From an uncultured delta proteobacterium (GTDB lineage Bacteria; Desulfobacterota; Desulfobaccia; Desulfobaccales; 0-14-0-80-60-11): 64,000 bases of DNA. This document shows, one piece after another, positions 41,381 to 56,432 of this stretch. The translations under genes were made by a program, and so were the position numbers. The notes under the pieces were generated by a model. It saw only the letters and a program-made list of their open reading frames with translations, did not search any database and had not been told where the DNA came from. The stretch lies in contig CAWETI010000002.1 in NCBI GenBank assembly GCA_963812015.1, forward strand, positions 368,381 through 432,380, in the 5' to 3' direction. Numbering within the stretch: position 1 is the first letter of the stretch; every line of letters begins with the position of its first letter.

Positions 41381-41632
41381 GCGCCTATGGGGTATCAGGT
41401 AAAAATCCAGTTTGAACGTAATTACGGGTAATTAAGGTTATAGCTTCCGGCCTTCCCGGTCCGACGGCAAGGGGCTAGGAGGGAAGCAGCCCCGGGGATC
41501 ACCGGTTCCCTGGCAGGTTTTATCCGGGCGCCAGGGACGATTCCAAGGGTCAATACGAGTAAAGGCAAGAGGCTTGGCCGGCACCAGGTGAGACTAAAAA
41601 GCGAAGCCTGAAGAGTGGGGTCCGATACCGAG

Positions 41633-44290
41633 ATGGAGAAGCATCATAGCTGCCTTAATACCCGGGCGATAATTGAGTATTTCCAAGAAAATGCGCCGGG
41701 AGAAGTGTATCGGCTCTTTACGGGTCTGGGCCCGGAAATTGAAGACCTGGCCAACCCCCAAGAATTTTTGATGGAGATTAATAATTGGGTGTCCAGCGAT
41801 GTGGTCACCAAGATGTTTGATAATGCCAAAGCCATAACCAAGGATGATGAAGTTGCATTTAAAATAGGGTTCGAATCGGCGGCAAGAAAAAAGTTAGGCT
41901 ATGTTCAGAGAATTATTATGTTTGCTCATAAAAACCCCAGACGTACTTTGAAAAGAGTTCAAGCTATTAATGATAAATTTAATAAAAATAAAATTATTGA
42001 ATTAATAGAAGCCAGAGGTGACAATGCGGTTATTCGGCTGCATTGGTTCAAAGAAATCCCCGGCACCATAGATTATTGTTTTTTTAATAAAGGGATATAC
42101 TCAGGGATTCCCACTATCTGGAACCTGCCGCCTGCTGATCTGGAAGAAACCAAATGTTATTTCAAAGGGGATGATTATTGCGAATACCATTTTAAATGGC
42201 AGAGAAATTTTTCTTTAAGGGAAGGCTTGTTGAGGCTGCTGGTGCCCTGGCGGGCGCTCAATTATACCATTGAGGAACTGGAGCGTGATAAAGAACTCCT
42301 GAAAAAGAAGTTTGATGAAATTCACCGATTAAATATTCAATTAAAAGAAAAGATCGATCAGCTCATCTGCATGCAGGAAACCAGCACCGCGGCGCTCTCG
42401 GTCCTTAACCTGGAGAAATTGCTCCAAGTAACGTTGCGACTGCTCATCAACTCGGCCAAACTGGATCGGGCCGGGATTCTGCTCCTGGACGAAAAAGGGG
42501 AGGTGCTGGAGCTGAACTATGCGGAGGGAATCGCCCCGGAACTTTTTGAACAGGTGCGGAACTATAAAATTTCCATTACGAAAGTGGATAACGTCATTGC
42601 CCGGGTAGCCATGACCGGCATCCCGGTGGTGATCCAAGATGTAGCCCGCAGCAAACTAAACATGAACAACGCCTTGATCCGATTTTTCAAGCCCAAGGCC
42701 TTCATTTTGGTCCCCCTCACGGTAAGGGGCAAGGTGATCGGGGTGCTCATGGCCGATCGAGTCCACGAGGATGCGATGATCACCGATGGCGACCGGGAGT
42801 TTATTGTGAGTTTCGCCAACCAGATTGCCATAGCCCTGGAAAATGCCGTGCTCTATCACAAGCTGGAGGTGTCGGAACGGAAATACCGTGAATTGGTGGA
42901 AAATGCTCACGAGGGGATCTGGATTATCGATGATAAAGGCCGGATCAAATTTGCCAACCGCAGGATGCGAGAGATTACCGGCCACGACACCCTGGAAAAT
43001 CACCATATTTCCGACCTGGCGGACCGGGACAATCAGAAGCGGTTAGCAGACATCATGGTTCAGAACCGGATGAACAATGTGGCGCAACAGGAATTGGATA
43101 TCATGTGCAAGGACGGGGGATCGGCCTCGGTTATCATGAGTTCGGTGCCATTGTTTGAAGACGGCCAGTTCGTGGGCGCTTTTGCCATGTTTAGTGACAT
43201 CACGGCATTGCGGGAAACGGAGGAGCGATTTCAGAAAATCTTTGAAGAAGCTGGCATCGGCATGGCTCTGGTGGATTTGACCGGCCACCTCTTGGATGCC
43301 AACCCGGCTTTCCTCAACATGCTGGGATATAATAAGAGTGAAGTAATCCGGAAATCTTTTAAGGATTTCATTCATCCGGAAGATATCCGGATAAGCGGCA
43401 GGCTGTTCAGGGAATTGGGGGAGGGTAAACGAGATTCCTACTCCCGGGAGAATCGTTACCTGCATAAAGAGAACCGGGTGGTCTGGGGCCAGGCGACCGT
43501 GTCCGTGCTCCGGGGCGCTGGAGGCGTACCGCAGTTTGCCATCGCCATGATCGCCGATATTACCGATCGGAAACAGGCAGAGGAAGACATTCGCACCTAT
43601 CAGGTGCAGCTCCAATCATTGGCCTCGGAATTGTCCCTGACCGAAGAGCGCGAACGGCGGCGCCTGGCTACAGATCTGCACGATCATATCGGTCAAGCCC
43701 TGGCCCTCTCCAAGATCAAACTGGGGGTACTCCAAAAAACCGTCATTGTGGAGAACCAGGCTAACTCTTTGGGCGAGGTGCGGGAGCTCATCGAGCAGAT
43801 GATCCAGGACACCAGATCCTTAACCTTTGAACTGAGCCTCCCGGTGCTTTACGAGCTTGGCTTTGAAGCGGCAGTGGAGTGGTACGCCAAGCATGTCCGG
43901 GCGCAGCACGGCATCAAGGTGGACGTCCAGCAAGACATGCTGCCCATTCCCATGGATGATGAAATCAAAGTCCTGCTTTTCCGTTCGGTGCGAGAGTTGA
44001 TGATTAATATTGTTAAGCATGCCCAGGCCCGCAATGCCCGGGTCACCATAAGGAGGGCAGGGGACGACGTCAACATCGAAGTGGAAGACGACGGGGTGGG
44101 AATTAAAGACGTCCGGCGAGATCAAAGGCTCAAAAGCAACGGCGGCTTTGGACTGTTCAGCATTAGAGAGCGCTTGCATTATCTTGGAGGCCAGGTGCAG
44201 GTGGAATCCGGGAAGACCCAGGGAACCAGGATTACTCTGATAGTACCCCTCCAACATGCCAGGAAGGCCCAATTGGAGATTGCGAGATGA
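41633..44290 (+). CDS. multidomain sensor histidine kinase: V4R-like N-terminal domain, coiled coil, GAF, two PAS, HisKA_3, HATPase_c
   Basis: N-domain ends ...LEETKCYFKGDDYCEYHF (V4R-type C..GD..C motif). GAF (VPLTVRGKVIGVLMAD). PAS (ENAHEGIWIID; FEEAGIGMALVD). H-box LATDLHDHIGQAL (HisKA_3/NarX type). G-boxes DDGVGI, GGFGL. GTG at 41615 is an alternative start. Confidence 0.9.
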   Translation: MEKHHSCLNTRAIIEYFQENAPGEVYRLFTGLGPEIEDLANPQEFLMEINNWVSSDVVTKMFDNAKAITKDDEVAFKIGFESAARKKLGYVQRIIMFAHKNPRRTLKRVQAINDKFNKNKIIELIEARGDNAVIRLHWFKEIPGTIDYCFFNKGIYSGIPTIWNLPPADLEETKCYFKGDDYCEYHFKWQRNFSLREGLLRLLVPWRALNYTIEELERDKELLKKKFDEIHRLNIQLKEKIDQLICMQETSTAALSVLNLEKLLQVTLRLLINSAKLDRAGILLLDEKGEVLELNYAEGIAPELFEQVRNYKISITKVDNVIARVAMTGIPVVIQDVARSKLNMNNALIRFFKPKAFILVPLTVRGKVIGVLMADRVHEDAMITDGDREFIVSFANQIAIALENAVLYHKLEVSERKYRELVENAHEGIWIIDDKGRIKFANRRMREITGHDTLENHHISDLADRDNQKRLADIMVQNRMNNVAQQELDIMCKDGGSASVIMSSVPLFEDGQFVGAFAMFSDITALRETEERFQKIFEEAGIGMALVDLTGHLLDANPAFLNMLGYNKSEVIRKSFKDFIHPEDIRISGRLFRELGEGKRDSYSRENRYLHKENRVVWGQATVSVLRGAGGVPQFAIAMIADITDRKQAEEDIRTYQVQLQSLASELSLTEERERRRLATDLHDHIGQALALSKIKLGVLQKTVIVENQANSLGEVRELIEQMIQDTRSLTFELSLPVLYELGFEAAVEWYAKHVRAQHGIKVDVQQDMLPIPMDDEIKVLLFRSVRELMINIVKHAQARNARVTIRRAGDDVNIEVEDDGVGIKDVRRDQRLKSNGGFGLFSIRERLHYLGGQVQVESGKTQGTRITLIVPLQHARKAQLEIAR

Positions 44291-44937
44291 TCAAGGTCAT
44301 ATTGGCGGACGACCACCAGATTGTGCGTCACGGGCTCCGCAGTCTACTGTCCGCGGAACCCGACATCGAGGTCGTGGGGGAAGCTGACAATGGGCGAGCC
44401 GTGGTCCGGATGGTCCAGGAACTCTCGCCTCAGGTGGTGATCATGGACATTTCCATGCCCGACCTGAATGGCATTGAAGCCACCCGCCAGATATTGAGCG
44501 ATACTACCGGGGTCAAGGTTATTGCCCTGTCGATGCATTCCGACAGTCTCTTCGTATTGAACATGTTCCAAGCGGGAGCTTCGGGGTACCTATTGAAAGA
44601 TTGCGCCCTGGAGGAGTTGGTCAAGGCCGTGCGCACGGTCATGAACCGCAAGATCTATCTCAGCCCCGGTATTTCCGATATCGTGATCAAAGACTTCGTC
44701 CTCGGGTGGTCTTCAACCGACTCCTCAGCCTATTCGATCCTGACCGCCAGGGAACGGGAAGTGCTGCAGTTAATGGCCGAAGGCAAGACCACCAATCAGA
44801 TCGCCGAAAACCTGTGCGTCAGTGTCAAGACGGTGGAGGCCCATCGCAAACAAATGATGAACAAGCTGGATATCCACAGCGTGGCCGAACTCACCAAGTA
44901 CGCCATACGCCAAGGACTGACTTCCCTGGAAGTTTGA
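44287..44937 (+). CDS. NarL/FixJ(LuxR)-family response regulator, paralogue 1
   Basis: REC (ADDH...IMDISMPDLNG...K) + LuxR HTH (LTAREREVLQLMAEGKTTNQIAENLCVSVKTVEAHR). ATGA overlap with the kinase. Confidence 0.95.
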   Translation: MIKVILADDHQIVRHGLRSLLSAEPDIEVVGEADNGRAVVRMVQELSPQVVIMDISMPDLNGIEATRQILSDTTGVKVIALSMHSDSLFVLNMFQAGASGYLLKDCALEELVKAVRTVMNRKIYLSPGISDIVIKDFVLGWSSTDSSAYSILTAREREVLQLMAEGKTTNQIAENLCVSVKTVEAHRKQMMNKLDIHSVAELTKYAIRQGLTSLEV

Positions 44938-45011
44938 GCCCGTCCCCAGCGCGGCGTTAGGAATTTCTCATCTCTAGAAGGTAAAAAATCAGGCATTGCG
45001 AACCGCAAAAT

Positions 45012-45024
45012 CAGGGAATCCCCG
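45012..45024. promoter_or_regulatory. CAGGGAATCCCCG imperfect inverted repeat, candidate operator upstream of regulator paralogue 2
   Basis: Related to the TAGGG-N3-4-CCCTA motif. Followed by CTAAGTGTAT as in the 45966-46002 region. Confidence 0.25.
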
Positions 45025-45231
45025 ACTAGAAGAGCCCTGGCACTAAGTGTATAAGATAATGAAGAAAATCTTAGGTGAGTGCTGAGGGGGCGAATCGGGG
45101 GAGAGGTATCCCTCGGTCCCGGCCAGGGAGAGGCCTAAAAGCGACTTCACCAACCCCAAGGCGGCCGACGTTGGCGCCAGGAAAGCATCGAGGGAATTAC
45201 CATGGGCCAAAGAAAAAGTCCATTTCATGGC

Positions 45232-45891
45232 ATGAACAGACCTATTAGGATCATCCTGGCGGATGACCACCAGATTGTGCGTCAGGGGCTGCGCATTCTC
45301 CTGCATGCGGAGTCTGACATGGAGATCATCGCCGAAGCCGATAACGGGCGCAAGGTGCTCAAACTGGCCCAGGAATTGTTGCCCGATGTTATCATTATGG
45401 ATCTGTCCATGCCCGAGCTGAATGGCATTGAGGCGACTCGGCAGATCTTGTCCGGGGCTCCTGATGTCAAGGTGGTGGCCCTATCGATGCATTCCGACAG
45501 CCTCTTCGTGCTCAACATGATCAAGGCCGGCGCCTCGGGCTATCTGCTGAAAGACTGCGCCCTGGAAGAACTGGTCAAAGCCATCCGTACCGTGGTCAAT
45601 CACAAAACCTACTTGAGTCCCGGGGTCTCGGACATCGTGATCCGGGATTTCGTGACCGGATGGCAGACTACGGGCACCTCGGCCTTTTCCGTCCTGTCGC
45701 CCCGAGAACGGGAAGTGCTGCAACTCATGGCGGAAGGCAAAACGACCAACCAAATTGCCGATGGCCTCTGTGTCAGCGTCAAGACCATAGAAGCCCACCG
45801 CAAACAGGTTATGACTAAATTGGGGATTCACAGTGTGGCTGAACTTACCAAGTACGCCATCCGCCAAGGATTGACCTCTTTGGAGGTCTAA
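45232..45891 (+). CDS. NarL/FixJ(LuxR)-family response regulator, paralogue 2
   Basis: Collinear with paralogue 1 over the full length, with long identical stretches (ALSMHSDSLFVLNM, AGASGYLLKDCALEELVKA, REREVLQLMAEGKTTNQIA, HSVAELTKYAIRQGLTSLEV). Confidence 0.95.
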   Translation: MNRPIRIILADDHQIVRQGLRILLHAESDMEIIAEADNGRKVLKLAQELLPDVIIMDLSMPELNGIEATRQILSGAPDVKVVALSMHSDSLFVLNMIKAGASGYLLKDCALEELVKAIRTVVNHKTYLSPGVSDIVIRDFVTGWQTTGTSAFSVLSPREREVLQLMAEGKTTNQIADGLCVSVKTIEAHRKQVMTKLGIHSVAELTKYAIRQGLTSLEV

Positions 45892-45965
45892 ACCTGCCTG
45901 AGGATCCCAGGCCGAAGCAGTACCTTTCTTGTAATTTCAAAAATAAGGTTTTTCGGAAATAAAAA

Positions 45966-46002
45966 TTAGGGATTCCCTAAGTGTATTTTAGGGGAATCCC
46001 TA
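45966..46002. promoter_or_regulatory. tandem pair of inverted repeats TTAGGGATTCCCTAA and TAGGGGAATCCCTA, candidate operator upstream of regulator paralogue 3
   Basis: Two perfect TAGGG/CCCTA palindromes 8 nt apart, about 115 nt upstream of the 46117 ATG. Confidence 0.4.
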
Positions 46003-46116
46003 TATTTTTATGCCCAGAGTGTTGTGCAAGCTGAGGGTGTTGGCCTGATGGCCGGAAAGTTGCCGCCTCGATCATATCCCGGCGCCACCAGGTCGACAGG
46101 TTGCCTTGGAGGCCGA

Positions 46117-46566
46117 ATGACCATCAAGATTGTTTTGGCGGATAATCACCCCATCGTACGCCATGGCCTGTCCTTGCTCCTGGCCGGGGAACCTGATATG
46201 TGCGTGGTGGGTGAAGCAGAAGATGGCGGCGCCACCATAAAGCTCACCCAAGAACTTGCCCCGGACGTGGTGATCATGGATATTTCCATGCCCGACTTAA
46301 ACGGGGTTGAAGCGACTCGCCAGATCTTGTCTCACTATCCCCAGGTCAAAGTAATCGCCCTGTCCATGCACTCCGATAGTCTTTTTGTCCTCAATATGCT
46401 CAACGCCGGAGCCTCAGGCTACCTGCTGAAGGATTGCGCCCTGGAAGAACTGGTCAAGGCCATTCGGACGGTGGTAACCCGGAAAATCTATCTCAGCCAC
46501 AGCTTATCTAACCTGCTGGTCGCGGATCTGGCCAATAAATTCTCTCTTGACAATTTTAAGCAATGA
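46117..46566 (+). CDS. receiver-domain-only protein: truncated third paralogue of the NarL-type regulators (HTH lost)
   Basis: REC domain collinear with paralogues 1/2 up to ...RKIYLS. It then diverges (HSLSNLLVADLANKFSLDNFKQ*) and stops, with no LuxR HTH. Confidence 0.85.
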   Translation: MTIKIVLADNHPIVRHGLSLLLAGEPDMCVVGEAEDGGATIKLTQELAPDVVIMDISMPDLNGVEATRQILSHYPQVKVIALSMHSDSLFVLNMLNAGASGYLLKDCALEELVKAIRTVVTRKIYLSHSLSNLLVADLANKFSLDNFKQ

Positions 46567-46721
46567 TGGCTTGAGGATCAGGCGCTCCGGGGGGCGCTGA
46601 ACTCGACCGGACCCGTGCGGGCATAAGCCGGGCACGGCAAGGGGCTTGGGCCGGGGGCGCCTCGGCATCCAGCCAGGTGCGGTTGCCGGGGCGCCGGTGC
46701 CTTCGTCCCCCCCGGCCGATC

Positions 46722-47435
46722 TCAGTAGCCCACCGGTAGCCGGAAGAGGATATCCGCCAGTTCCTCGGCGCATTGGAGGGGCTGCGCGGTTTCGCCATGC
46801 AGCTGCAAGCATTCGGACCACAAGCCCGGCAAATCCCGGCCGGCCGGTTCCCAGTCCACGTCCAGGGGAAAAAGGGGATTTGCCTGGCTGGCCGCCTCCC
46901 AGGCGGCAAAGTCGGCGAACCGGGGGTCCAGGCCCTGGGCCCGTTCGAAGGCGCTGTGGGCAATATCTTGGTTGAAACCGGTGCTCCAGAAGAACTCGAT
47001 GAGGCCCGGCACCGACTCGGCCAGGGGCACACCTTCCAGCATCTCCGGGCGGTAGCGCAGGCAAACCCGTTGGCTGCCGTGGTGACCCGGCTCCCCCCGG
47101 ACGTTGGGCAGGTTGGTATGGTACAGGGTATCTTCCAGCGAACTCAGGGCGCGGTTCCGGAAGAACATCTTCATTTCCTCGAAGCCGTCCCGGTAAAAGG
47201 TCAAGACATAGATGATGTAAGGGAAGGCCAGGCGGTGGGCCTGGTAATCGTTCGCCCCTTTTTTGCCGCCGCTGACCCGGAGAGTGCGGCATTGGGGGGG
47301 ATGTTCCACCACCAGGTAAAGCAGGTCTTTCTTCCGGCAGAGCCAGCGGGTGCCCGGGGGTAAGAGCGGCAACGGCGGCGGCATGACTCGGGCCACGTAA
47401 CGCAACACCGCGTCCAGGGGCGCCCGGCGGCTCAC
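46722..47435 (-). CDS. hypothetical protein, possible E2/UBC-fold-like protein (tentative)
   Basis: 237-aa ORF with balanced composition, whereas the overlapping alternative frames are R/P/G-rich. Helix, four-strand-like segment, then LYHTNLPNV-x11-RVCL, then helices. GTG start is uncertain. Confidence 0.55.
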   Translation of the reverse strand: MSRRAPLDAVLRYVARVMPPPLPLLPPGTRWLCRKKDLLYLVVEHPPQCRTLRVSGGKKGANDYQAHRLAFPYIIYVLTFYRDGFEEMKMFFRNRALSSLEDTLYHTNLPNVRGEPGHHGSQRVCLRYRPEMLEGVPLAESVPGLIEFFWSTGFNQDIAHSAFERAQGLDPRFADFAAWEAASQANPLFPLDVDWEPAGRDLPGLWSECLQLHGETAQPLQCAEELADILFRLPVGY

Positions 47436-47534
47436 CCGCCCCGGCCCGGCCCCAGCCTCCTCCTGAAGGATTATCTCACTGCCCTCAATGACGATCTTGT
47501 CTCGGATGGCTATTTTTTTCCTTGCTTCTTGATT

Positions 47535-47556
47535 CCCCCCTTTTTCAAAGGGGGGG
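47535..47556. repeat. CCCCCCTTT-TTC-AAAGGGGGG hairpin repeat
   Basis: Perfect 9-bp stem. Same family as the hairpins at 16079-16156. Confidence 0.7.
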
Positions 47557-47582
47557 AAAAACCCGCTGCATTGTATGCAATA

Positions 47583-47813
47583 TTAGGCTTTTTTCCCTTT
47601 GCCGATGATCGCACAAATGAAGTTATAAAGCTGGTTTTCGAGGTCTTCCATTGTTTCCCAAACGATATGGTTATATTGACGCGTATCGAAGTGAACGTCT
47701 TTAAGGTCGTCCTTTCTCACGCACCATATTACCGGCAATCCCAAACCAAGGGCATATCCTGCTTCAAAGTATACTCCGCGCCGCAAATTGGCCTATAGGA
47801 CAAATTTTTTCAT
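47583..47813 (-). pseudogene. decayed nucleoside 2-deoxyribosyltransferase-like / TIR-like (Rossmannoid) gene remnant
   Basis: ATG AAA AAA TTT GTC CTA TAG, then in the same frame ANLRRGVYFEAGYALGLGLPVIW...HFDTRQYNHIVWE (the YFE.GYA.GLG.PVI motif of the family). Only about 70 codons remain and there is no proper start. Visibly AT-rich. Confidence 0.5.
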
Positions 47814-47869
47814 TTAAATCTTCATTCATTTTTGTTTTGTACCTATCTCTTTTTCATAATTGATCCAGA

Positions 47870-49621
47870 TTAATCTTCCTCCCTCTCTTCCCCCGGTGCG
47901 GCCCAGGCCCAGACCCGGTCCGGCACAAAGCGCCGGGAGGAGCACTGGTTCAGGGCCAGCCGCTCCATGTGCCGCAGCACCTCCATCTGGTGGGGAGGCA
48001 GAAAGTCGTCAATCACCCGGTGGAAATCTGCCTGGCTGACTGCTTCCCGGCCCGCCAGGCGCGCCTCGCGGTAGGCCCGGAAGACCAGCTCCTCGATGTC
48101 CCCGCCGGTGATCAGCTCCGGGTGCCGAGCCTCCAAGTAGCGGGTGACGTCGGCAAAATCCGGAAAATCGCAGGCAATGTGGCTACGCTTCGCCACCACC
48201 GTGAAAATGTGACACTTTTCGGTGAAATCCGGCATGAAGAAGGGGATGCGTTCGCTGGAACGGCCTGAGCGCAGGTCCGCTTTGTCCAGGCGATCCGGGC
48301 GGTTGGTAATCCTGATCCACAGGACCTTGCCCTGGATGGCGGGGTCGCCCATAAAGTCAAAACGCATCTGCCGGAGGCGGTTACCCACCCCCGTATCGCC
48401 GGAGTACTCATCCCGGCTGTGCTCGCTCTGGTCGGCTTCGTCTTCCAGGACCACCACGGGGGTGAGACTGCGGAGAGTGGCGAGGGCCTTAAAAAAATTG
48501 CGTTCGCTTTCTCCCACCCACTTAGTCCGGGGATTGAGCAGCTTGACGAAATTAAAGCCCGCATCCCGGGCCAGGGCTTCCGCCAGGGCGGTTTTGCCCA
48601 CTCCCGGGGGCCCCATCAGGGTGATGCCCCGGGGGACCAGTTTGTGGTCGCCGGCATGGATGGCCTGGGCAATCTGGCTGAAGTAGGCCTTGATGGGTTC
48701 CAACCCGCCGATTTCCTCGAGGCCGAAGCGGGGTTCGATGACTTCGATGAGCCCCACCAGTTCCTGGCGGAGCAGATCCTTCTTTTTGCGGCGGACCATC
48801 TCCGGGGTGAGGGGGGCGCGCCGGGACTGGCGCAAGAGGGCCTGCAGCACCCTCAGGCTGAGGCCGGCCGCCAGGTTGGCCAATCCCTGGGTGGTCAGTT
48901 CCAGGCGGTAGGCGCCGGAAGACAAGAGATATTCGATAAAATGGAGGCGGTCCGTCTGGTCCGGCGGCGGCACTTCGATGATTTGGGCCCCATGGCGGCT
49001 GAGCAGCAGATTGGGGTTCAACTCGGCCAGATTGCCGGTGGTCAGGAAAATGAGATGGCCCTGCTCCACCAGTTCCCGCTGCCGGGCCCAGCGCAGCAAG
49101 GTCACCAGGGAGGCCCGGTCCGGCTCCCCCATGGAGCCCAGGTCCACCGCCGGCACGATGGTCTCGGCGTACTCCAGGATCAGGGCCAGGGGCTGGGTCA
49201 GGCCGCCCTGCTGGCACGGCGCGGTCATGACCCGCTCCGCCAGTTGGAGCACTTCCCGGGGACTTTGGGGCAGGGGTTTGGCAGAGGGCGGTTGCCCCAG
49301 GGCCCGCAAGGCCCGGGCCCGGACCCGGGAAACCTCTTCGGCGTCGTCCGCTTCCCGGGGGGGAGGCTCCTCGAGGGCCAGTCTGAAGGCATTTTCCCCC
49401 GGGGCGTCCCAGAACTCCAGCCCCAGGCCGAGATTATAGGAGACCACATGGTGGGTCTGGGCCAGCCATTGACCCAGAAAATGGCGAAACGGCAGGTAAG
49501 CCCCATTCACCCGGATATAATCGAAGACCTGCCCATGGAGGATAAAGAGGGCCGATTCGCCTTCCTGAAGGTGCTCCGCCAATTCTTGGGCCCATTCCGG
49601 GAGGTTTTGCCAGGGCCCCAT
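47870..49621 (-). CDS. classical-clade AAA+ ATPase with a degenerate (Walker-less) N-terminal half
   Basis: C-terminal module: Walker A GPPGVGKT, Walker B VVVLEDEAD, second region of homology ITNRPDRLDKADLRSGRSSERIPF. The N-terminal ~300 aa lack nucleotide motifs. GAGGAG RBS. Confidence 0.85.
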   Translation of the reverse strand: MGPWQNLPEWAQELAEHLQEGESALFILHGQVFDYIRVNGAYLPFRHFLGQWLAQTHHVVSYNLGLGLEFWDAPGENAFRLALEEPPPREADDAEEVSRVRARALRALGQPPSAKPLPQSPREVLQLAERVMTAPCQQGGLTQPLALILEYAETIVPAVDLGSMGEPDRASLVTLLRWARQRELVEQGHLIFLTTGNLAELNPNLLLSRHGAQIIEVPPPDQTDRLHFIEYLLSSGAYRLELTTQGLANLAAGLSLRVLQALLRQSRRAPLTPEMVRRKKKDLLRQELVGLIEVIEPRFGLEEIGGLEPIKAYFSQIAQAIHAGDHKLVPRGITLMGPPGVGKTALAEALARDAGFNFVKLLNPRTKWVGESERNFFKALATLRSLTPVVVLEDEADQSEHSRDEYSGDTGVGNRLRQMRFDFMGDPAIQGKVLWIRITNRPDRLDKADLRSGRSSERIPFFMPDFTEKCHIFTVVAKRSHIACDFPDFADVTRYLEARHPELITGGDIEELVFRAYREARLAGREAVSQADFHRVIDDFLPPHQMEVLRHMERLALNQCSSRRFVPDRVWAWAAPGEEREED

Positions 49622-49784
49622 AGATGCTCCTCGCTGGTTGAATGGCCTGGAGTGGGGGAGGAGAGCGATCGTTACCTGCTCAGGCCGCTGCTCCCGCCCC
49701 GTCGCATATTTTGGACACCTACCGTCAAGGCCGGCTCGATTGCCTAGTGGGGATGGTAATTAAGGTGAATAGACTTAGGGCCTA

Positions 49785-50291
49785 TTACAGCAAGGGTTCG
49801 ATCAATTTCATGAAAACGGCTTTTTTCCGGGTGCCCTCGATCCTTTGGGCGATGTTGCCCTGCTTGTCGATGATTACGGTGGTGGGCACGACCGCGATGC
49901 TCCCATAGGCATCGCTCACCTTGTCATTGCCGATGAGCACCGGGTATTGCAGGCCCAATTGTTTCACCAGGAACCGGATTTGGGTAGGGTCGGAGCTCAG
50001 GGCGATCCCGAAGGTTTGCAGGCCCTTGCCCTTGAGTTCGTCATTGATCTTGCTCAGGTCCGGCATCTCATCCCGACACGGACCGCAAAAAAAGGTGAAA
50101 AAGTTGAGCACGACCACCTTGCCTTTGAACTGGCTGAGGGAGTAATCTTTGCCCGTGAGCACGTCTTTTAGGGTAAAGTCAGGGGCAGATTTTTCGGCCC
50201 CCCAGCCTGGAGACGCCAAGGCCAGGACGCAGACGGCTACCAGCAGCATCCGAGCGGTGGTCCAGGAAATGCGAAATGACTTTTGAGCCAT
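49785..50291 (-). CDS. TlpA/ResA-family periplasmic thiol:disulfide oxidoreductase
   Basis: Signal anchor plus thioredoxin fold with FCGPC active site. AAGGAGGG RBS before the ATG at 50291. Confidence 0.85.
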   Translation of the reverse strand: MAQKSFRISWTTARMLLVAVCVLALASPGWGAEKSAPDFTLKDVLTGKDYSLSQFKGKVVVLNFFTFFCGPCRDEMPDLSKINDELKGKGLQTFGIALSSDPTQIRFLVKQLGLQYPVLIGNDKVSDAYGSIAVVPTTVIIDKQGNIAQRIEGTRKKAVFMKLIEPLL

Positions 50292-50528
50292 TACAACCCT
50301 CCTTGCTCTGAGGATAAAGTGCCTCTTTTCTGCCTTAACCATATCAAAAAGGCCCCCAGCCTGCAATTTTTTACTCGGAGGAGAAAACCGGCGGCCTTCG
50401 CCCCTCTGGCCCTCAGAAATGGCCTGCCCGAAATTTTCTCCGGGTTGACATCTCTTACCCGCAATCTTACCTATTTTCTATGAGTGAGCTCATAAATGTC
50501 TAAAAACACCAGGAAGGAGTCGAAGCTT

Positions 50529-50975
50529 ATGCGCAAGCACTGTAGGTTTTTGAGTCTGGTCATGGCAGGCATCTTGCTGTGCGCGGCGGCCGCGGCCCAG
50601 GCCGATGACAACCCCATCTATCCCATCGGTGAAGTGACCATTGAAGCCAGGCAGGTGGCCGCCGGGGTGGGCTATAGTTGGGGTGACGGCGTGATGAAAT
50701 TCCAGGGCAAAGAGTATCGTTTCACCGTCAAGGGCCTCAATGTCGCGGCAGTGGGGATTGCGAAGATCAACGCCGTCGGGGACGTCTACAATCTGAAAAC
50801 GGCCGGGGATTTGGCCGGTAAATATGTGTCGGTGAGCGCCGGCCTGAGCCTGGCCAAGGGCGCCTCCGGCTTGAGCATGAGGAACAACCAAGGGGTGGTC
50901 ATCAACCTGAGGGCGGCCCAGCAGGGGGTGCAACTGAATCTGGGGGTGGATGGCTTCGTCATCGAGATGAAATAG
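50529..50975 (+). CDS. secreted Gly/Val-rich beta protein (DUF992-like)
   Basis: Signal peptide ...AAAAQADD. Pattern GVGYSWGDG...G.Y.F...G......G......G.VYNL....D..G.Y....AG resembles DUF992. GGAAGGAG RBS. Confidence 0.5.
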   Translation: MRKHCRFLSLVMAGILLCAAAAAQADDNPIYPIGEVTIEARQVAAGVGYSWGDGVMKFQGKEYRFTVKGLNVAAVGIAKINAVGDVYNLKTAGDLAGKYVSVSAGLSLAKGASGLSMRNNQGVVINLRAAQQGVQLNLGVDGFVIEMK

Positions 50976-51108
50976 GGCTCTCACCGATTACGGGCACACC
51001 CAATCTTGTCAGGCCAGGGGCTTGGCGGCGGGCGATGGAGAACATCGCCCGTTTTTTTTGCGCGGCCGCGAGGTTTTCTCTGGTCCGCTCCGGTTCAGCG
51101 GCATTGCC

Positions 51109-51999
51109 CTATCCTCCGGCCGCGCCCTCCGGCTTGTCCAGGGTGGGGCCGACGGCGATGCGCAAACCGGCGCCGGCCTGCTCCAGGAAACCCTCCTGAA
51201 TCAGGGTGTGGATGAGCCCGGTGGTGCGAGCCGGGCTTTTCCCCAGGGTGTCCACCAGGGCCTCGACGGAGAGAGCTGGGGTTGCCAGGAGGGTTTTGAG
51301 GATCAGGCCCCGGATCTGGCGATCGGAATCGGCAAAGGGGGCCTGGCGTTGGTGGTGGGCACTCCTCCGGTTGGGGTTGGGGGCGGCGCGCTTGAGCATG
51401 GCCCCGTAATCCATCAGGGCATAGTACCAGAGGCGCGGCTGCTCCCGGTCCAAGATCTGGTCCACCAGGGGCAGGATCTCCCGATCCTTCACCCCGGTGC
51501 GGCCGGGAAAGAAGCAGTGGAGGAAGACCCGGCGAATGTTGGTCTCGATGAACACCACCGGCTGGTTGAAGGCGAAGGCGGCCAGGGCCCCGGCGGTGGC
51601 CTCGCCAATCCCGGGAAAGGTGCGGAGGGTCGCAACCGCGGCGGGGAGGCGCCCGCCGAACTCCGCCACCACCCGTTGGGCGAGGCGCTGCAGGGCCAGG
51701 GCCCGGCGGTTGTAACCCAGCCCCTGCCACCTGCCCATGATCTCCCGCAGGGGGGCCCGGGCCAGGGACAGCAGGTCGGGGAAGGCCTTGATAAAGGGCT
51801 CATACTTGAGGGCGACGCGCTCCACCTGGGTCTGTTGCAGCATGATTTCGGAGACGAGGATGTGATAAGGGTCAGCCGTGTCCCGCCAGGGCATCCGGCG
51901 CCCCTGGTCATGAAAAAACCGGTATATGTGCCGGCGGAAGCGGCGGACGGCGGCGGGAGTGACCCGGCTCGCCTCGAAGGTCTCGGCAAAGGGCTCCAC
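51109..51999 (-). CDS. HhH-GPD DNA glycosylase (MutY/EndoIII-like) lacking the Fe-S cluster loop, with a winged-helix-like tail
   Basis: PWRDT.DPYHILVSEIMLQQTQV, LGYNRRA, FPGIGEATAGA (HhH-GPD). No Cys-x6-Cys-x2-Cys-x5-Cys after DYGAML. GTG start. Confidence 0.75.
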   Translation of the reverse strand: MEPFAETFEASRVTPAAVRRFRRHIYRFFHDQGRRMPWRDTADPYHILVSEIMLQQTQVERVALKYEPFIKAFPDLLSLARAPLREIMGRWQGLGYNRRALALQRLAQRVVAEFGGRLPAAVATLRTFPGIGEATAGALAAFAFNQPVVFIETNIRRVFLHCFFPGRTGVKDREILPLVDQILDREQPRLWYYALMDYGAMLKRAAPNPNRRSAHHQRQAPFADSDRQIRGLILKTLLATPALSVEALVDTLGKSPARTTGLIHTLIQEGFLEQAGAGLRIAVGPTLDKPEGAAGG

Positions 52000-52615
52000 G
52001 CTTAAGGTTCTCCGGTGAGGCTGGTTTTCGCAGGGGCCCGGCCCTGAAAGCGCAGTCGCTCATGAGCCTGGGGCTCACCCGTAAATCATGAAAAGCTGCT
52101 CAGGGCAGGGCCTGCCGTGCCCCCTCGTAACGTCGATCCCGGCGTAGGAGCACCGGGCGCGGTGCCCCCGGAAAATCGCCCGAGGAACTTTTCTTAACAG
52201 GGAACTCTCTTGCCAGATGATACCTCAGTTCGGCCGGCGGCAAAAGGGCCGGCGGCGATTCAGCCCTTAAGGCGCTGTTTTCGCACCATTTCCCCGGCAG
52301 GGCGCTGAAGTCGCCAGGGCCAGGGCTTCCCAAGCCCGGCGGCATGGCGGCATGATCACCCGCTGGCAGGCTGTAACCGGCCAGCCGGAGGGAGATCGCT
52401 GGCCGGGGCATAGGCAACGAGCTTCAAGGGGGCCAGGCGCCATCTCATTTGGTTAAAAACTATTTTAATTATATTAATTATTTTTGTAACCTTCCGGGCC
52501 GCGGTGGCGACACTAAAGGTAAGGATGCTTGATACCCGCGCGCCATCCGTAACCCCGGTGATGCAAACCGGAACCTGCACGGATCAAGGATCATGACCTT
52601 CAGGGAGGAAACAGA

Positions 52616-53263
52616 ATGAGCATCAAGATTCTGATTGTCGATGATCACCAGATCACCAGAGAGGGCATTCGCAGCATGCTGGAACGAGAACCAGACATGA
52701 AAGTTTTGGGAGAGGCTGAGGATGGTCGCTCTGCCACGAGAATGGCAAGGGAATTAGGCCCGGACATCATAGTGATGGATGTATGTATGCCTGAGATGAA
52801 CGGCATCTTGGCCACGAGCGTAATCATTGCCGAGTCCCCCAAGATAAAGGTGCTCGCCCTCTCTATGCTCGCAGATAGGCGATTTGTCTATAATATGTTG
52901 CGGGCTGGTGCGTCAGGGTATCTGATCAAGGATTGTTCTTTCAAGGAGTTGGTCCGAGCCATTCGCGTGGTGATGGCAAATAGAACTTACCTCAGCCCTG
53001 GAATAATGGATGTGGTAGTGAAAGACTACGTGAAGCCTTCGGCCTATTCCGATTCGCCATCTTCCTCCAATTTAACTATCCGCGAAAGTGAAGTGTTGCA
53101 GATGGTCGCTGAAGGGCATTCTACCTCTCAAATTGCCAAGCGTCTGCATTTGAGCGTAAAGACCATAGAGACTCATCGGCAAAAACTTATCGCAAAAATA
53201 AATGCCAAAGGCATTGCCGGGCTCACCAAATATGCCATTCGGGAGGGATTGACTTCTGCATGA
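52616..53263 (+). CDS. NarL/FixJ(LuxR)-family response regulator (fourth, more divergent paralogue)
   Basis: REC + LuxR HTH (LTIRESEVLQMVAEGHSTSQIAKRLHLSVKTIETHR). AGGGAGG RBS. Confidence 0.95.
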   Translation: MSIKILIVDDHQITREGIRSMLEREPDMKVLGEAEDGRSATRMARELGPDIIVMDVCMPEMNGILATSVIIAESPKIKVLALSMLADRRFVYNMLRAGASGYLIKDCSFKELVRAIRVVMANRTYLSPGIMDVVVKDYVKPSAYSDSPSSSNLTIRESEVLQMVAEGHSTSQIAKRLHLSVKTIETHRQKLIAKINAKGIAGLTKYAIREGLTSA

Positions 53264-53396
53264 ATTAGTGCATTATGGTTGGGAAAAGATAGGGTTGGTT
53301 CGAAATCAGACTCTTTTTGGTAAGCGAGAGTATCCGGCCTTATTGTGGTCCGTCTTTTCCAAGTGGGGCCACAATCTTATTTTTTCCCCTGTCGAG

Positions 53397-53987
53397 ATGA
53401 ACTTCACAGACAATGCTCCTGACGATGCCTTGGTTATCGATAATATCCTTAGGGGGAATATTAACTCCTTTGAAATTTTGATGGACAGATACCAAGACCA
53501 TGTGTCTCGAATCGTCAGGAACCATGTACCCAGGGATTACGCGCCGGAAGTGGCCCACGAAACCTTTGTCCAGGCCTACCAATCTTTAGGAGGTTTTAAA
53601 GAAACCGGTCCGTTTAAACACTGGCTTTCCAAAATTGCCATAAGGTGTTGCCATGATTTCTGGCGTGGTTATTATCAAAAACAGGAGAACCGGGTGTGTC
53701 CCCTCCCCGATGATTGCCGAGACTGGGTTGACCATCTTCTATCGGATCAATCGGCGGAGCGGGACGCGGAGAGGGTGGAGGCCAGGGATCTGTTGGAGTG
53801 GGGCTTGGGTCAATTGTCGGCTTCGGAAAGAACGGTGCTGACCCTGACCCACCTGAATGAATACTCGGCGACCGAGGCGGCGGAACTTCTGGATTGGAGC
53901 GTCATCAGGATAAAGGTCCAATCTTACCGGGCCCGGAAGAAGCTCCGGAAGATTCTTGGGAAAATTCTCCCCCAAGGGATAGCATGA
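53397..53987 (+). CDS. ECF-type RNA polymerase sigma-70 family factor
   Basis: Region 2 (FEILMDRYQDHVSRIV...AHETFVQAYQSL..F......HWLSKIAIRCCHDFWR) and region 4 (LSASERTVLTLTHLNEYSATEAAELLDWSVIRIKVQSYRARKKL). Confidence 0.9.
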   Translation: MNFTDNAPDDALVIDNILRGNINSFEILMDRYQDHVSRIVRNHVPRDYAPEVAHETFVQAYQSLGGFKETGPFKHWLSKIAIRCCHDFWRGYYQKQENRVCPLPDDCRDWVDHLLSDQSAERDAERVEARDLLEWGLGQLSASERTVLTLTHLNEYSATEAAELLDWSVIRIKVQSYRARKKLRKILGKILPQGIA

Positions 53988-54601
53988 AGCCCTCCAAAAA
54001 ACACCTGGATAAAATAGAAGAAGCGCTGATTGCGGTTTACCGTAAGCAGGAGGATCCCCAATTCCCTCCGGACTGGCGGCAACAGGTGATGCAGGATATC
54101 AGTTCGATGGCCGGGCCCACGGCTTTTCCCCAAGAAAAGAAGATCAGGACCATGATCCCCAGGAGAATCGGGGTCCTTGCCGGGGTGGCCCTGGCCGCCA
54201 TCGTGGGGTGGCTGATCCTGGCAAACCTGGACTGGTATGATCCCTGGATCACTTTGAAACCAGACCTGGCCGCTCTGGAATCCCACGGGGCGTTCTGGCT
54301 GGAAGCCGGAGATATAGATAGCGGGTTAAGGAGCGTCAAGGTGATCGTTGTCCAGAAGGAAGTGCGAGCGGAAGTGCTGTCCAAAGACCTTGAACCTCCA
54401 GGGGGGATTTGGGCCGGCACAAGCCATGCGGTCAAAAAAGCAGATTTCCCTTTGGAGGTGGATGCCCAGGCCTTAGGACTGCACGAAGGGAAGGCCACCA
54501 TCGTCGTTACGGTTCGTGACTTATCCTGGAGAAACTGGTTTAAAGGACGGGCCACCACCCTGAAAAGGGAAATGGTTATTTATTATAAAAAATCCCCCTG
54601 A
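53984..54601 (+). CDS. membrane-anchored putative anti-sigma factor with an extracytoplasmic domain resembling the N-terminal region of M23-peptidase proteins
   Basis: ATGA overlap with the sigma gene. One TM helix (IGVLAGVALAAIVGWLILA). DIDSGLRSVKVIVVQ...LGLHEGKATIVVTVRDLSWRNW pattern. Confidence 0.6.
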   Translation: MKPSKKHLDKIEEALIAVYRKQEDPQFPPDWRQQVMQDISSMAGPTAFPQEKKIRTMIPRRIGVLAGVALAAIVGWLILANLDWYDPWITLKPDLAALESHGAFWLEAGDIDSGLRSVKVIVVQKEVRAEVLSKDLEPPGGIWAGTSHAVKKADFPLEVDAQALGLHEGKATIVVTVRDLSWRNWFKGRATTLKREMVIYYKKSP

Positions 54602-54703
54602 ATTGAAGTGAACCACCCGTATAATCGTTATCTCTAACCCTCCCATACACAGGTTCTTGGTTTTGGCTTTTGGCAAAGATAGGCGGCTTGCAAAAAGACG
54701 GCC

Positions 54704-54940
54704 TCAAGCCGGGGACCGCCCCGGGGCCTGGCCCTCCGGGGAGCCGCTCCGGTCTTCGCATTGACACGGTCCGTGCTTGTGGACCAGTCGGTTGAGCCTG
54801 GCGCAATAAAGCGCCGCAAAGGTTCTGCAGGACCCGGACCCATCAACCGCCTCAGTCCGGGGAAATGAGGCATGCTCACAAGATAAGTCACACCACTTCA
54901 CGGGGTTCCCTCCTGCCACCCGTTGATTTAGCCGCATCAT
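54704..54940 (-). CDS. small Cys-rich protein (KWCDLSC...GSGSC...LYC...GPC)
   Basis: 78-aa 3' portion of the 284-aa track ORF. Only this part lies outside the sulfotransferase gene and has a protein-like, Cys-patterned sequence. Tandem ATG start. Confidence 0.45.
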   Translation of the reverse strand: MMRLNQRVAGGNPVKWCDLSCEHASFPRTEAVDGSGSCRTFAALYCARLNRLVHKHGPCQCEDRSGSPEGQAPGRSPA

Positions 54941-55172
54941 CTGCCAAAAATCAAGTTTTTTACTCCGGTCGGGACACCTTGAGCGGTGGGAGACCCACCG
55001 ACCCCGCGGCCCGGGGTGGCGGGCAGCCCCAGCAGCATCATCCGGTTGCTTAAAGCCGGCTGAGATTTTCTCGATTTTTTCTGAACCAGGTTGTAGAATA
55101 CCCCAGGCACGGTTACAATCAAAAAACATCGGAGTAAGGCCTCGGATAACCGGCCTCAAACCACCGCCGACC

Positions 55173-56432
55173 ATGATTTCGCCCATGACGAAACCGCCTG
55201 ACCGCCTCAATGGTTCGATGATATTGCACCTGATCAATGCCGCCGGCCGTCGGTTTGTGGGAAATGGGCTCAAATGGCTGAGCCTGGATGAACAGCTCCT
55301 GCTGGACAGGGCCTGCGAAGGCACCGGCCTGGATGACTTCGGAGACGACTCGTTCCGGGAAGGCTTGAGGGTCTTGTTACGGTCATATGAACTCGACGCC
55401 GAGTTCAGCTTTGTGGGCCGCATCTGCGTCAACGGCGACACGGTCCGGTTGCTGAGCAACCGGCTCCGGCTGGTGGCGGACCGCCGGCGCCATCCGGGCA
55501 TTGCGGCTGAAGTCATCCGACGGCCGCTGTTCATTACCGGGCTGCCCCGTAGCGGCACGACCTTTTTGCACGCCCTGCTGGCCCAGGACCCGGCCCATCG
55601 CGCCCCCCAGGTTTGGGAAGTGATGCACCCGTCCCCCCCGCCCGAAAAAGCGTCCTACGCCACCGATCCCCGCATCGCCACCACGGATAGGCAACTGAAG
55701 TGGGTCGACATCCTGATGCCGGATTTCAAAAAGGTGCACATGATCGGCGCCAGGCTGCCCCAAGAGTGCATCGCCATTACCAGCCACGACTTCCGCAGTT
55801 ATTCCTTCGAAACCATGGCGGCGGTGCATTCCTACCGGGCCTGGCACGACCGCCAGGACAAGCGCCCCGAATATGAGTTTCACCGGCAATTCCTGCAACA
55901 CTTGCAGTGGCGCTGCCCCGGCCAAAGGTGGGTGCTCAAGGCGCCCGGCCACCTGCTGGCCCTGGAGGCGCTGTTGCAGGTCTATCCCGATGCCTGCGTC
56001 CTGATGACGCATCGCGACCCCCTTAAGGTCCTGGCTTCGTGCGCCAGCTTCACCGAGGTATTGCGGAGCGCCTTCAGCGATCGGGTGGACAAGGTGTCGA
56101 TGGCCCGGCAAGTGGGGCAACGGTGGGAAGAAGGCGCCGGGCTGGCGGTGAAGTATCGGCAGGCAGGGAACCTGGGGGGCCAGTTGTTTGACGTCCAGTA
56201 CTTAGAATTGGTGCGGGACCCCATCTCCATGGCGCGGCGCATTTATGAACATTTCGACCTGGAGTTGACCGCGGCGGCGGAAACGGCTATGCAGCGGTTT
56301 CTGGCGGAGAACCCCCAGAACAAAGGCGGGGTGCACCGCTATTCCCTGGAAGAATTCGGGTTTAACCGCGAGGAGGAAAGACGTCGCTTTCAAGCCTACC
56401 TGGATTGTTTCGGCATTGAGCCGGAGAGCTGA
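55173..56432 (+). CDS. sulfotransferase family protein
   Basis: 5'-PSB motif FITGLPRSGTTFLHALL and a downstream RDP...S pattern of PAPS-dependent sulfotransferases. Confidence 0.8.
   Translation: MISPMTKPPDRLNGSMILHLINAAGRRFVGNGLKWLSLDEQLLLDRACEGTGLDDFGDDSFREGLRVLLRSYELDAEFSFVGRICVNGDTVRLLSNRLRLVADRRRHPGIAAEVIRRPLFITGLPRSGTTFLHALLAQDPAHRAPQVWEVMHPSPPPEKASYATDPRIATTDRQLKWVDILMPDFKKVHMIGARLPQECIAITSHDFRSYSFETMAAVHSYRAWHDRQDKRPEYEFHRQFLQHLQWRCPGQRWVLKAPGHLLALEALLQVYPDACVLMTHRDPLKVLASCASFTEVLRSAFSDRVDKVSMARQVGQRWEEGAGLAVKYRQAGNLGGQLFDVQYLELVRDPISMARRIYEHFDLELTAAAETAMQRFLAENPQNKGGVHRYSLEEFGFNREEERRRFQAYLDCFGIEPES

Follow-up and report, generated by a model that had tools for sequence, protein, structure and literature searches.

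A Cdc48-like AAA+ ATPase and a putative E2-like protein conserved in Desulfobaccales, possibly a reduced form of a bacterial ubiquitin-like tag-and-unfold system

In this work we have analysed a stretch of 64,000 nucleotides (the window) from an uncultured delta proteobacterium of the Desulfobaccales (assembly GCA_963812015.1, contig CAWETI010000002.1, positions 368,381 to 432,380) and, within it, two neighbouring genes on the minus strand. One codes for an AAA+ ATPase of 583 residues (47870..49621) and the other (46722..47507) for a protein, here called X, which has 237 residues when read from the listed GTG at 47435 and 261 residues from the start proposed below. On balance, we regard the two as a co-inherited module of a bacterial 'tag-and-unfold' system built around a ubiquitin-like protein (Ubl), and the Desulfobaccales as holding a reduced form of that system. 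A sequence-only reading of the window had described the same segment as an inserted orphan pair with a decayed gene for a nucleoside 2-deoxyribosyltransferase (NDT)/TIR-like protein, and as a candidate anti-phage system. The three minus-strand open reading frames (ORFs) which it placed at 47870-49621, 46722-47435 and 47583-47786 are where it put them, and its view of AAA+ and X as a pair was borne out by gene-neighbourhood analysis. The two genes are adjacent in more than 55 loci from at least two phyla (37 Desulfobaccales species-representative loci and about 20 loci of Methylomirabilota or Acidobacteriota), and these comparisons support a true functional pair.

The larger protein had been named a classical AAA+ ATPase, and Pfam AAA agrees with this (E 2.4e-22, residues 334-461). 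Its best partial matches in NCBIfam were CDC48 and PAN; the CDC48 profile (TIGR01243) scored 89 bits against a cut-off of 803 and matched the D2 region only, and PADLOC gave only weak generic matches to IetA and TRIP13. When its AlphaFold2 (AF2) model (predicted local distance difference test, pLDDT, 78) was submitted to Foldseek, the D1D2 part of p97/VCP, Drg1/AFG2, NVL and Pex1/6 were retrieved over about 600 columns with E ~1e-18 and template modelling (TM) scores of 0.5-0.6. In alignment A6 the first domain, D1 (residues ~20-290), keeps AAA-like strand and helix motifs and has no Walker A/P-loop (...LFILHGQVFDY...). The second, D2, carries Walker A (GPPGVGKT, 337-344), Walker B (D394-E395), sensor 1 (N440), the arginine fingers R451/R454 and an aromatic pore loop, K367-W-V-G370, all of them invariant in the same alignment. 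No Cdc48 N-domain (double-psi barrel) was found in the protein, which begins directly with D1. By sequence and model it is a predicted type II (tandem D1-D2) unfoldase of the classical clade, Cdc48/p97-like, with a degenerate D1 and a predicted active D2. Full-length orthologues with 47-51% identity occur in Methylomirabilota (NC10), in a metagenome-assembled genome (MAG) of Candidatus Sulfotelmatobacter and in unclassified MAGs. The NCBI labels are 'ATP-binding protein' for AAA+ and 'hypothetical protein' for X.

Profile and structure searches, suggested earlier for both proteins, thus placed AAA+ beside p97 D1D2, whereas X gave no direct significant match, and what can be said of X comes from its relatives. 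Its family profile collected 1854 representative proteins at E <=1e-3 and 1080 at E <=1e-10. When 105 members of this superfamily were sampled, the Pfam family Prok-E2_D was matched by 24 of them and no other family recurred. The best of these matches had an E of 7.6e-8 and 32.7 bits against a 25-bit cut-off, and two members were above the gathering score in the region aligned with X (P0273 with 32.7 bits and P0345 with 28.5 bits). The proteins which match Prok-E2_D align to the X profile in this same region at E <=1e-28. An NLxN-(13)-C motif is invariant from the X of the window to remote members of the superfamily (alignment A8), the Cys being conserved in at least 90% of the 105; N111 and C125 (237-residue numbering) are invariant in alignments A2 and A4 and lie in a long loop after a beta-meander. 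The AF2 model of X (pLDDT 81) consists of an N-terminal hairpin, a helix, a six-strand meander, the long Asn/Cys loop and C-terminal helices, and in this model the elements would follow one another as in UBC, with two extra strands and the hairpin added. Taking together transitive homology, motif, topology and operon context, we consider it likely that X is a divergent E2-superfamily (Prok-E2_D-like) protein, also because the orthologous operons described below hold no other E2 candidate. If so, a likely fold and role could be assigned to a largely unannotated superfamily, comprising 1854 representative clusters, of which Pfam recognises about a quarter of those sampled. The X/Prok-E2_D-like domain also stands at the C-terminal end of many multidomain proteins of 500-790 residues (P0268, P0273, P0285, P0345 and others); their N-terminal regions are hydrophobic and probably span the membrane, and by eye they resemble coiled coils.

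The listed start of X was also reconsidered, using loci fetched from relatives (L numbers here and below), of which L001-L057 span the Desulfobaccales comparisons of the X start, the palindrome and the spacer. A conserved beta-hairpin (...AIRDKIVIEGSEIILQEE...) is encoded in the 28 codons before the listed GTG and corresponds in the alignment to the N-terminus of the NC10 proteins. The codon aligned with Met1 of those proteins is an invariant Ile codon in 50 Desulfobaccales loci (ATC in 42, ATT in five and ATA in three), preceded in most of them by an AAGGA/AGGAA motif, which was judged by eye and not counted. An in-frame stop lies upstream in 34 of the 50, with no ATG, GTG or TTG between this stop and the Ile codon, and in four of the 34 no canonical start appears through the position of the window GTG. 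In L038 and L044 the 150 nt examined contain no in-frame stop, and the GTG position holds no start codon either. Because of the conserved Ile codon, the Shine-Dalgarno-like motif and the upstream stops, X very probably begins upstream of the listed GTG; its translation probably starts at a non-canonical codon, the AUC at window position 47507, 11 nt downstream of a Shine-Dalgarno-like AAGGA (47519..47523, minus strand). A frameshift in the poly-A run 47513-47519, separating X from a TTG start, was considered and dropped, since the 50 loci share the in-frame Ile codon (ATC), the Shine-Dalgarno-like motif and frequent upstream stops. Gene callers truncate X to 220-250 residues.

What do the two proteins work with? 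In every orthologue of 47-51% identity that we examined, AAA+ is the first gene of a tight operon with the order AAA+-X-JAB-E1(ThiF)-small protein. The X homologue has 259-267 residues (40-45% identical), the JAB protein 221-223, the E1 223-248 and the small protein 89-92, except that in L011 the last was called at 129 residues, with extra residues at its C-terminus. The genes often abut or overlap by 1-4 nt, as do AAA+, X and JAB in L083 and L085, and the tight packing of these three suggests a physical complex. The JAB protein is above the cut-off of Pfam Prok-JAB (26.4 bits, cut-off 25), and its HxHx7SxxD motif is intact; the E1 matches ThiF (E 8e-20) and has a conserved AEMSCEEL cysteine motif. 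In NCBIfam the nearest profiles were PRTRC_A for JAB (E 4e-8, 33 bits vs 101.8) and PRTRC_ThiF for the E1 (E 1.4e-14, 54 vs 144.75 bits). The small protein, the putative Ubl, ends in LAGEKG, followed in some copies by a few more residues; that of L083 ends exactly at the glycine. The description of the pair as an orphan, lacking E1, JAB and Ubl partners, therefore holds for the 64-kb window, but exactly those partners are linked to the E2-like gene in the orthologous operons of Methylomirabilota and Acidobacteriota.

X is also found in other arrangements, namely X-Ubl-(MoxR-VWA)-X' in NC10 and X-E1-Ubl-JAB, without AAA+, in L082. In seven Methylomirabilota loci (L002, L003, L061, L064, L068, L071 and L072) two X paralogues flank Ubl, with or without a MoxR (AAA_5) and a VWA protein, followed by conserved hypothetical proteins of 121, 121 and 454 residues and a TPR protein. 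No E1, JAB or classical AAA+ was detectable in this two-X architecture, and Pfam searches of the unassigned genes in the MoxR-VWA-type loci L002 and L060 gave TPR and hydrolase matches only and no E1 or JAB. Some MAGs hold both the two-X architecture and the AAA+-X-JAB-E1-Ubl operon.

In Desulfobaccales an orthologue of the putative Ubl (55-70% identical, with LAGEKG and a short tail; ThiS match E 0.008) is encoded about 5 kb from the pair and was found within 10 kb of it in 24 loci. Its cluster consists of genes for a FlK-like thioesterase, a 264-270-residue protein, Ubl and rpoZ. In L004 (876-3815) and the equivalent regions of 24-30 Desulfobaccales loci, a divergently transcribed gene for a protein of 317 residues adjoins this cluster. 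The 264-270-residue and 317-residue proteins had no match in Pfam or PADLOC; they might replace the missing JAB or E1 functions. No Ubl/270-residue/rpoZ cluster of the Desulfobaccales type was found by tblastn in the window.

From homologies, domain architectures, motifs, gene orders and conservation we infer a sequence of steps, of which the conjectural parts are that X works by thioester chemistry, that tagged substrates are unfolded, that a generic E1 is used, and what the physiological role is. In the full form, the JAB peptidase would expose or recycle the C-terminal glycine of Ubl (...LAGEKG) and the ThiF-type E1 would adenylate it. X would carry the activated Ubl as a thioester on C125 and pass it to target proteins. 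AAA+ would assemble as a hexamer whose D1 ring is inactive and whose D2 ring, with its aromatic pore loop, is active. It would take hold of tagged proteins, or of the X~Ubl complex, and thread them through the D2 pore, thereby unfolding or extracting them. In the reduced form of Desulfobaccales, AAA+ and X would stay at a fixed chromosomal site with Ubl encoded elsewhere, and a housekeeping ThiF/MoeB enzyme would have to activate Ubl, because no dedicated JAB or E1 is encoded nearby. Perhaps, and we put this forward only tentatively, several phyla have a chromosomal, vertically inherited Ubl conjugation wired to a Cdc48/p97-type segregase, of which the Desulfobaccales keep a minimal version that borrows a general E1 and throttles translation of the E2-like protein through the AUC start. 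To our knowledge, most of what is known so far of Ubl conjugation in bacteria concerns mobile defence systems (CBASS Cap2/3, Bil, Bub) and uncharacterised PRTRC-type cassettes, and we know of a coupling between a tag and an unfoldase in bacteria only for the unrelated Pup-Mpa. If our proposal is true, it would describe a bacterial counterpart of the eukaryotic ubiquitin-Cdc48 axis, serving housekeeping turnover or remodelling of proteins. An E1, an E2-like protein, JAB and Ubl joined to a Cdc48-like tandem AAA+ would give a tractable bacterial model of tagging followed by unfolding, and the operon would bear on the origin of the link between ubiquitin and Cdc48/proteasome.

Several results weigh against this proposal. 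X was said earlier to belong to no nameable family, and in direct searches this stands: Pfam, NCBIfam and PADLOC gave no match, with nothing in Pfam at E <=0.1. Foldseek with the X model against the PDB found nothing significant, E2s being among the weak matches (6jky_E, 2aak and 2e2c; E 0.4-1.9, TM 0.34-0.37). A sequence-profile search of the PDB with the X alignment stayed at chance level, the best match being a DsbA with E 0.017, and hhalign gave no match between the X alignment and an alignment of five eukaryotic E2s. What makes the Ubl a candidate is its context, its size, its C-terminal Gly and a weak similarity to ThiS. In the 64-kb window, tblastn with queries from three operons detected neither JAB nor E1 nor Ubl, and when JAB and E1 were searched for at low stringency around 53 Desulfobaccales loci (870 kb), one chance-level match only was returned. 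In L087 the genes after AAA+ code for LMWPc and ADP-ribosylglycohydrolase, and the next 8 kb contain no X; L032 and L036 have X with no AAA+ within 10 kb; because of these exceptions, adjacency of the two genes is not obligatory.

Could AAA+ and X then be a chaperone pair which works without Ubl? In such a case JAB and E1 would have been lost, and X would be a non-catalytic adaptor (UEV/RWD-like) or a regulator that feeds specific clients to the unfoldase. The lack of JAB and E1 in the window and near every Desulfobaccales locus examined speaks for this alternative. The JAB family gave 146 matches, and no Desulfobaccales source name appears among the 120 listed, which suggests that the Desulfobaccales have no orthologous JAB; both JAB-family contexts that were looked up were AAA+-X-JAB-E1 operons, from other phyla. 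It also fits that the Ubl gene can be physically separate from the pair. However, the candidate catalytic Cys and the NLxN motif have remained invariant in the X of Desulfobaccales, and Ubl with its LAGEKG end is retained there, 55-70% identical and near the pair in 24 loci. We therefore think it unlikely that the pair has dispensed with Ubl, and keep the reduced tag-and-unfold module as our reading.

Is the segment an insertion, as had been thought from its abrupt edge and its composition? Gene tables and tblastn mapping of 53 Desulfobaccales loci indicate otherwise. The 121 homologues of X are nearly all 66-88% identical and from Desulfobaccales (Thermodesulfobacteriota) MAGs, and AAA+ is 72-96% identical within Desulfobaccales. 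The recurrent order in the 53 loci is Redoxin, AAA+, a variable spacer and X, with regulators and a GAF/PAS histidine kinase on the opposite strand; this Redoxin-AAA+-spacer-X-regulator order in 37 species-representative loci contradicts the idea of an inserted segment. Because this identity extends across dozens of species and the position is constant, the pair appears to be ancient and under selection. The receiver-only response regulator which was supposed to have been split (46117..46566, plus strand; Pfam Response_reg only) is the third of three tandem paralogues. It does align with the other two, at the DNA level, to ~46498 and lacks the helix-turn-helix domain, but the break is not recent. 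In the subclade with three regulators the third copy is receiver-only as well, and its tail, IYLSxSLSNLLVxDLANKFSLDD, is kept with 77-83% amino-acid identity in at least 11 relatives (L017-L019, L021, L023, L024, L026, L027, L030, L056 and L063). L004 and L008 have two full-length regulators only and still carry the pair, with X directly adjoining one of them. Because the receiver-only copy is conserved and two-regulator relatives also carry the pair, we conclude that the segment did not split it; judging from these alignments, it is an old, maintained stand-alone receiver.

The change in composition is real. X and AAA+ have a GC content of 0.64-0.65 in the window, the neighbouring regulator and redoxin genes 0.52-0.55 and the NDT/TIR-like remnant 0.45; a housekeeping HhH-GPD gene of the same window is above the pair with 0.68. 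However, ~65% GC of X and AAA+ next to neighbours of 52-58% is common to every Desulfobaccales orthologue, so the raised GC says nothing here about recent acquisition. In all Desulfobaccales genomes the two genes are 7-12 points above their immediate neighbours, and their GC at third codon positions is 0.80; such a gene-specific bias could stem from an ancient transfer from a GC-rich lineage or from compositional constraint. By these comparisons, the segment is not a recent insertion but an old, vertically inherited pair, and for annotation the locus is neither an insertion nor a defence island. The closest relative (L087/L088) has 95% nucleotide identity with the window over 47889-56000, ending at 47889, and beyond the redoxin gene the window genome is different, its sequence matching L088. 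L023 and L087 come from one MAG (GCA_052139855.1, SEr3G3H3I bin_140), whose two versions of the AAA+ locus share 86% and 96% identity with the window, which points to two related populations mixed in one bin.

Between AAA+ and X lies the decayed NDT/TIR-like gene, correctly recognised by the sequence-only reading along with the palindrome beside it. The ORF of 67 residues (47583..47786, minus strand) matches Pfam Nuc_deoxyrib_tr (E 0.036) and a PADLOC TIR effector (E 1.9e-4) weakly. Tblastn showed it to be the 3' remnant of a gene for a 318-residue protein, 86% identical to residues 253-316 of that in L010; the last 64 codons are all that the window keeps, with no intact NDT/TIR-like domain. 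The intact protein is present in L010, L016, L017, L020, L021, L023, L035 and L046. At its N-terminus a zinc ribbon can be read from the sequence; its C-terminal part is a TIR/NDT-like domain, matching a PADLOC TIR effector with E 5.4e-12 and Pfam Nuc_deoxyrib_tr with E 1.7e-4 (22 bits vs a cut-off of 28.8). Its gene is placed between AAA+ and X, usually with one or two genes of the DUF559 type (Vsr/restriction-endonuclease-like) after it, and in other genomes the spacer holds DUF559 alone, short remnants, other sequence or nothing. Compared with L021, the window has lost ~795 nt from the 5' part of the 318-residue gene and a DUF559 gene of ~400 nt, and homology starts again at 47780. The deletion scar lies in the AT-rich junction between the end of AAA+ and the remnant (47787..47889), as does the point where homology with the closest relative breaks off. 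At the place of the window spacer (47508-47869), L019, L025 and L027 have 1.2-1.7 kb which matched none of our queries, and L087 has at least 8 kb of other genes. From these comparisons the AAA+/X spacer is a rearrangement hot spot for small genes.

The palindrome, TCCCCCCTTTTTCAAAGGGGGGGA (47534..47557, 24 nt), resembles a repetitive extragenic palindromic element and lies between the remnant and X. It occurs as a single copy in the window, where none is expected by chance, and about 30 relatives have it in the corresponding position upstream of X, ~120 nt from the GTG position. Further copies are found elsewhere in the loci of relatives, for example five in L030, and in the comparison with L021 the palindrome brackets the DUF559 slot. 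It was also considered as an intrinsic terminator and rejected, as no T-run follows it on either strand and the terminator scan did not call it.

These results bear on the second alternative, that AAA+, X and the NDT/TIR-like effector form one horizontally acquired anti-phage or conflict cassette inserted in the regulator array. There are grounds for it, as Ubl-conjugation modules such as Bil and CBASS Cap2/3 act in defence, the intact 318-residue neighbour has a TIR-like domain, AAA+ is weakly similar to IetA and TRIP13, the spacer hot spot takes up DUF559 nucleases too, and the GC content is raised. Yet about 40 species show the same locus and order, their pairs being 66-96% identical, all orthologues share the raised GC, and the receiver-only regulator is conserved in its own right. 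The PADLOC v2 models gave no match to a defence system, and none at all for X, JAB or Ubl; relatives of X were found neither on plasmids (tblastn, PLSDB) nor in viral contigs (IMG/VR). The NDT/TIR-like gene, which had been counted as a component of the system, looks like a spacer passenger, because it varies independently of the pair between present, absent and decayed, does not occur in the AAA+-X operons of other phyla and travels with DUF559. An anti-phage role and a recent acquisition that split the regulator thus find no support in the databases, the synteny or the regulator itself, and we consider a conflict cassette quite improbable. The stable chromosomal position, the vertical inheritance and the absence from plasmids and viral contigs point to a role of the pair in housekeeping or regulatory proteostasis rather than in defence.

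It is even less probable that the genes belong to a sulfur-carrier or biosynthetic pathway with CysO/MoeZ/Mec or ThiS/ThiF chemistry, in which the Cys of X would carry a persulfide or acyl group and AAA+ would be an accessory. The Ubl is ThiS/MoaD-like, the E1 is closest to ThiF/MoeB adenylyltransferases, and in one operon TENA/THI-4 and radical SAM genes lie downstream. Those neighbours, however, vary between loci, sulfurtransferases and rhodaneses are absent, the nearest profiles of JAB and E1 are those of a conjugation-type PRTRC cassette, and such pathways are not known to involve a Cdc48-like threading unfoldase or an E2-superfamily protein. That both ORFs are non-functional leftovers of a lost operon, as the locally missing partners, the visibly decayed neighbour and the lack of a canonical start upstream of the conserved N-terminus of X might suggest, is scarcely credible when both are full length, align end to end with their orthologues, are strongly conserved in amino-acid sequence across dozens of species and keep the ATC start with its Shine-Dalgarno-like motif.

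How does the proposed tag-and-unfold module compare with known systems? The earlier statement that the unit matches none of them was upheld: no database names it, and literature searches for the AAA+-X-JAB-E1-Ubl operon returned no description, the nearest being Kaur et al. 2020 (PMC7159879) and Iyer et al. 2006. By its defining features it is not a member of the PRTRC/type 6d, Cdc48, FtsH-ternary, Bil, Bub or CBASS systems; the window has the reduced two-gene form only. Type 6d operons comprise Ubl, JAB, an E1-like component and an E2-like one with a conserved His after the Cys (Iyer-Burroughs-Aravind 2006). The operons found here share with PRTRC/type 6d this four-part logic, a small Ubl and an E2-like protein of the Prok-E2_D superfamily; their JAB, with an extra N-terminal domain, matches PRTRC_A, and their short ThiF-type E1 matches PRTRC_ThiF over its full length. 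However, all scores are far below the NCBIfam cut-offs (TIGR03735-03737), X does not match PRTRC_B (remote members of its family reach 17-22 bits against a cut-off of 131) and lacks the conserved His after the Cys, and a tandem AAA+ is added. ParB was found in none of the locus gene tables, and the operons also have no alpha-helical partner. They are chromosomal and syntenic, whereas PRTRC is carried on integrative and conjugative elements or plasmids, and the window has just the E2-like gene and AAA+.

The likeness to Cdc48/p97, which in eukaryotes and archaea acts on ubiquitin- or SAMP-tagged proteins, lies in the tandem D1-D2 fold, the aromatic pore loop and the linkage of the gene to Ubl, E1, an E2-like protein and a JAB/Rpn11-type peptidase, a coupling read from gene order only. 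The AAA+ of the window differs in having no N-domain, a D1 without P-loop and an identity of only 17-22%, and no Ufd1/Npl4-type adaptor or proteasome gene lies near it. The 'FtsH ternary' vWA-MoxR systems have two classical AAA domains, the N-terminal one inactive, linked to JAB, E1, E2 and Ubl (PMC7159879). This tandem with an inactive N-terminal domain is similar, and the sister architecture of Methylomirabilota joins X and Ubl to MoxR-VWA. In contrast, MoxR, vWA, RING E3, EAD1 adaptor and caspase-like effector are all missing from the window and from the five-gene operon, there is no fusion of Ubl with E2, and the phyletic pattern is a vertical one without a tie to multicellular taxa. With Bil, Bub and CBASS Cap2/Cap3 the operon shares E1, E2 and a deconjugating peptidase, plus Ubl in the case of Bil and Bub, and the E1 has weak PADLOC matches to BilD and the CBASS E1-E2 (E ~2e-6); unlike them, the operon has an AAA+ unfoldase, no CD-NTase or effector, and no mobile or defence-island context. 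In the actinobacterial Pup-Mpa-proteasome system, too, a small protein tag is read by a hexameric AAA+ unfoldase, but neither its chemistry nor its folds are related to those discussed here: PafA/Dop ligate Pup, which is disordered, and Mpa contains coiled-coil and OB domains. The NCBIfam profile pup_AAA matched the AAA+ of the window with E 2e-7 and 30 bits against a cut-off of 505.

Elsewhere in the window, the three tandem response regulators (44287-46566, plus strand) are of the NarL/GerE type and lie downstream of one GAF/PAS histidine kinase (41615-44290). A fourth paralogue of these regulators is found with a sigma-70-family factor of the extracytoplasmic function (ECF) type at 52616-53987.

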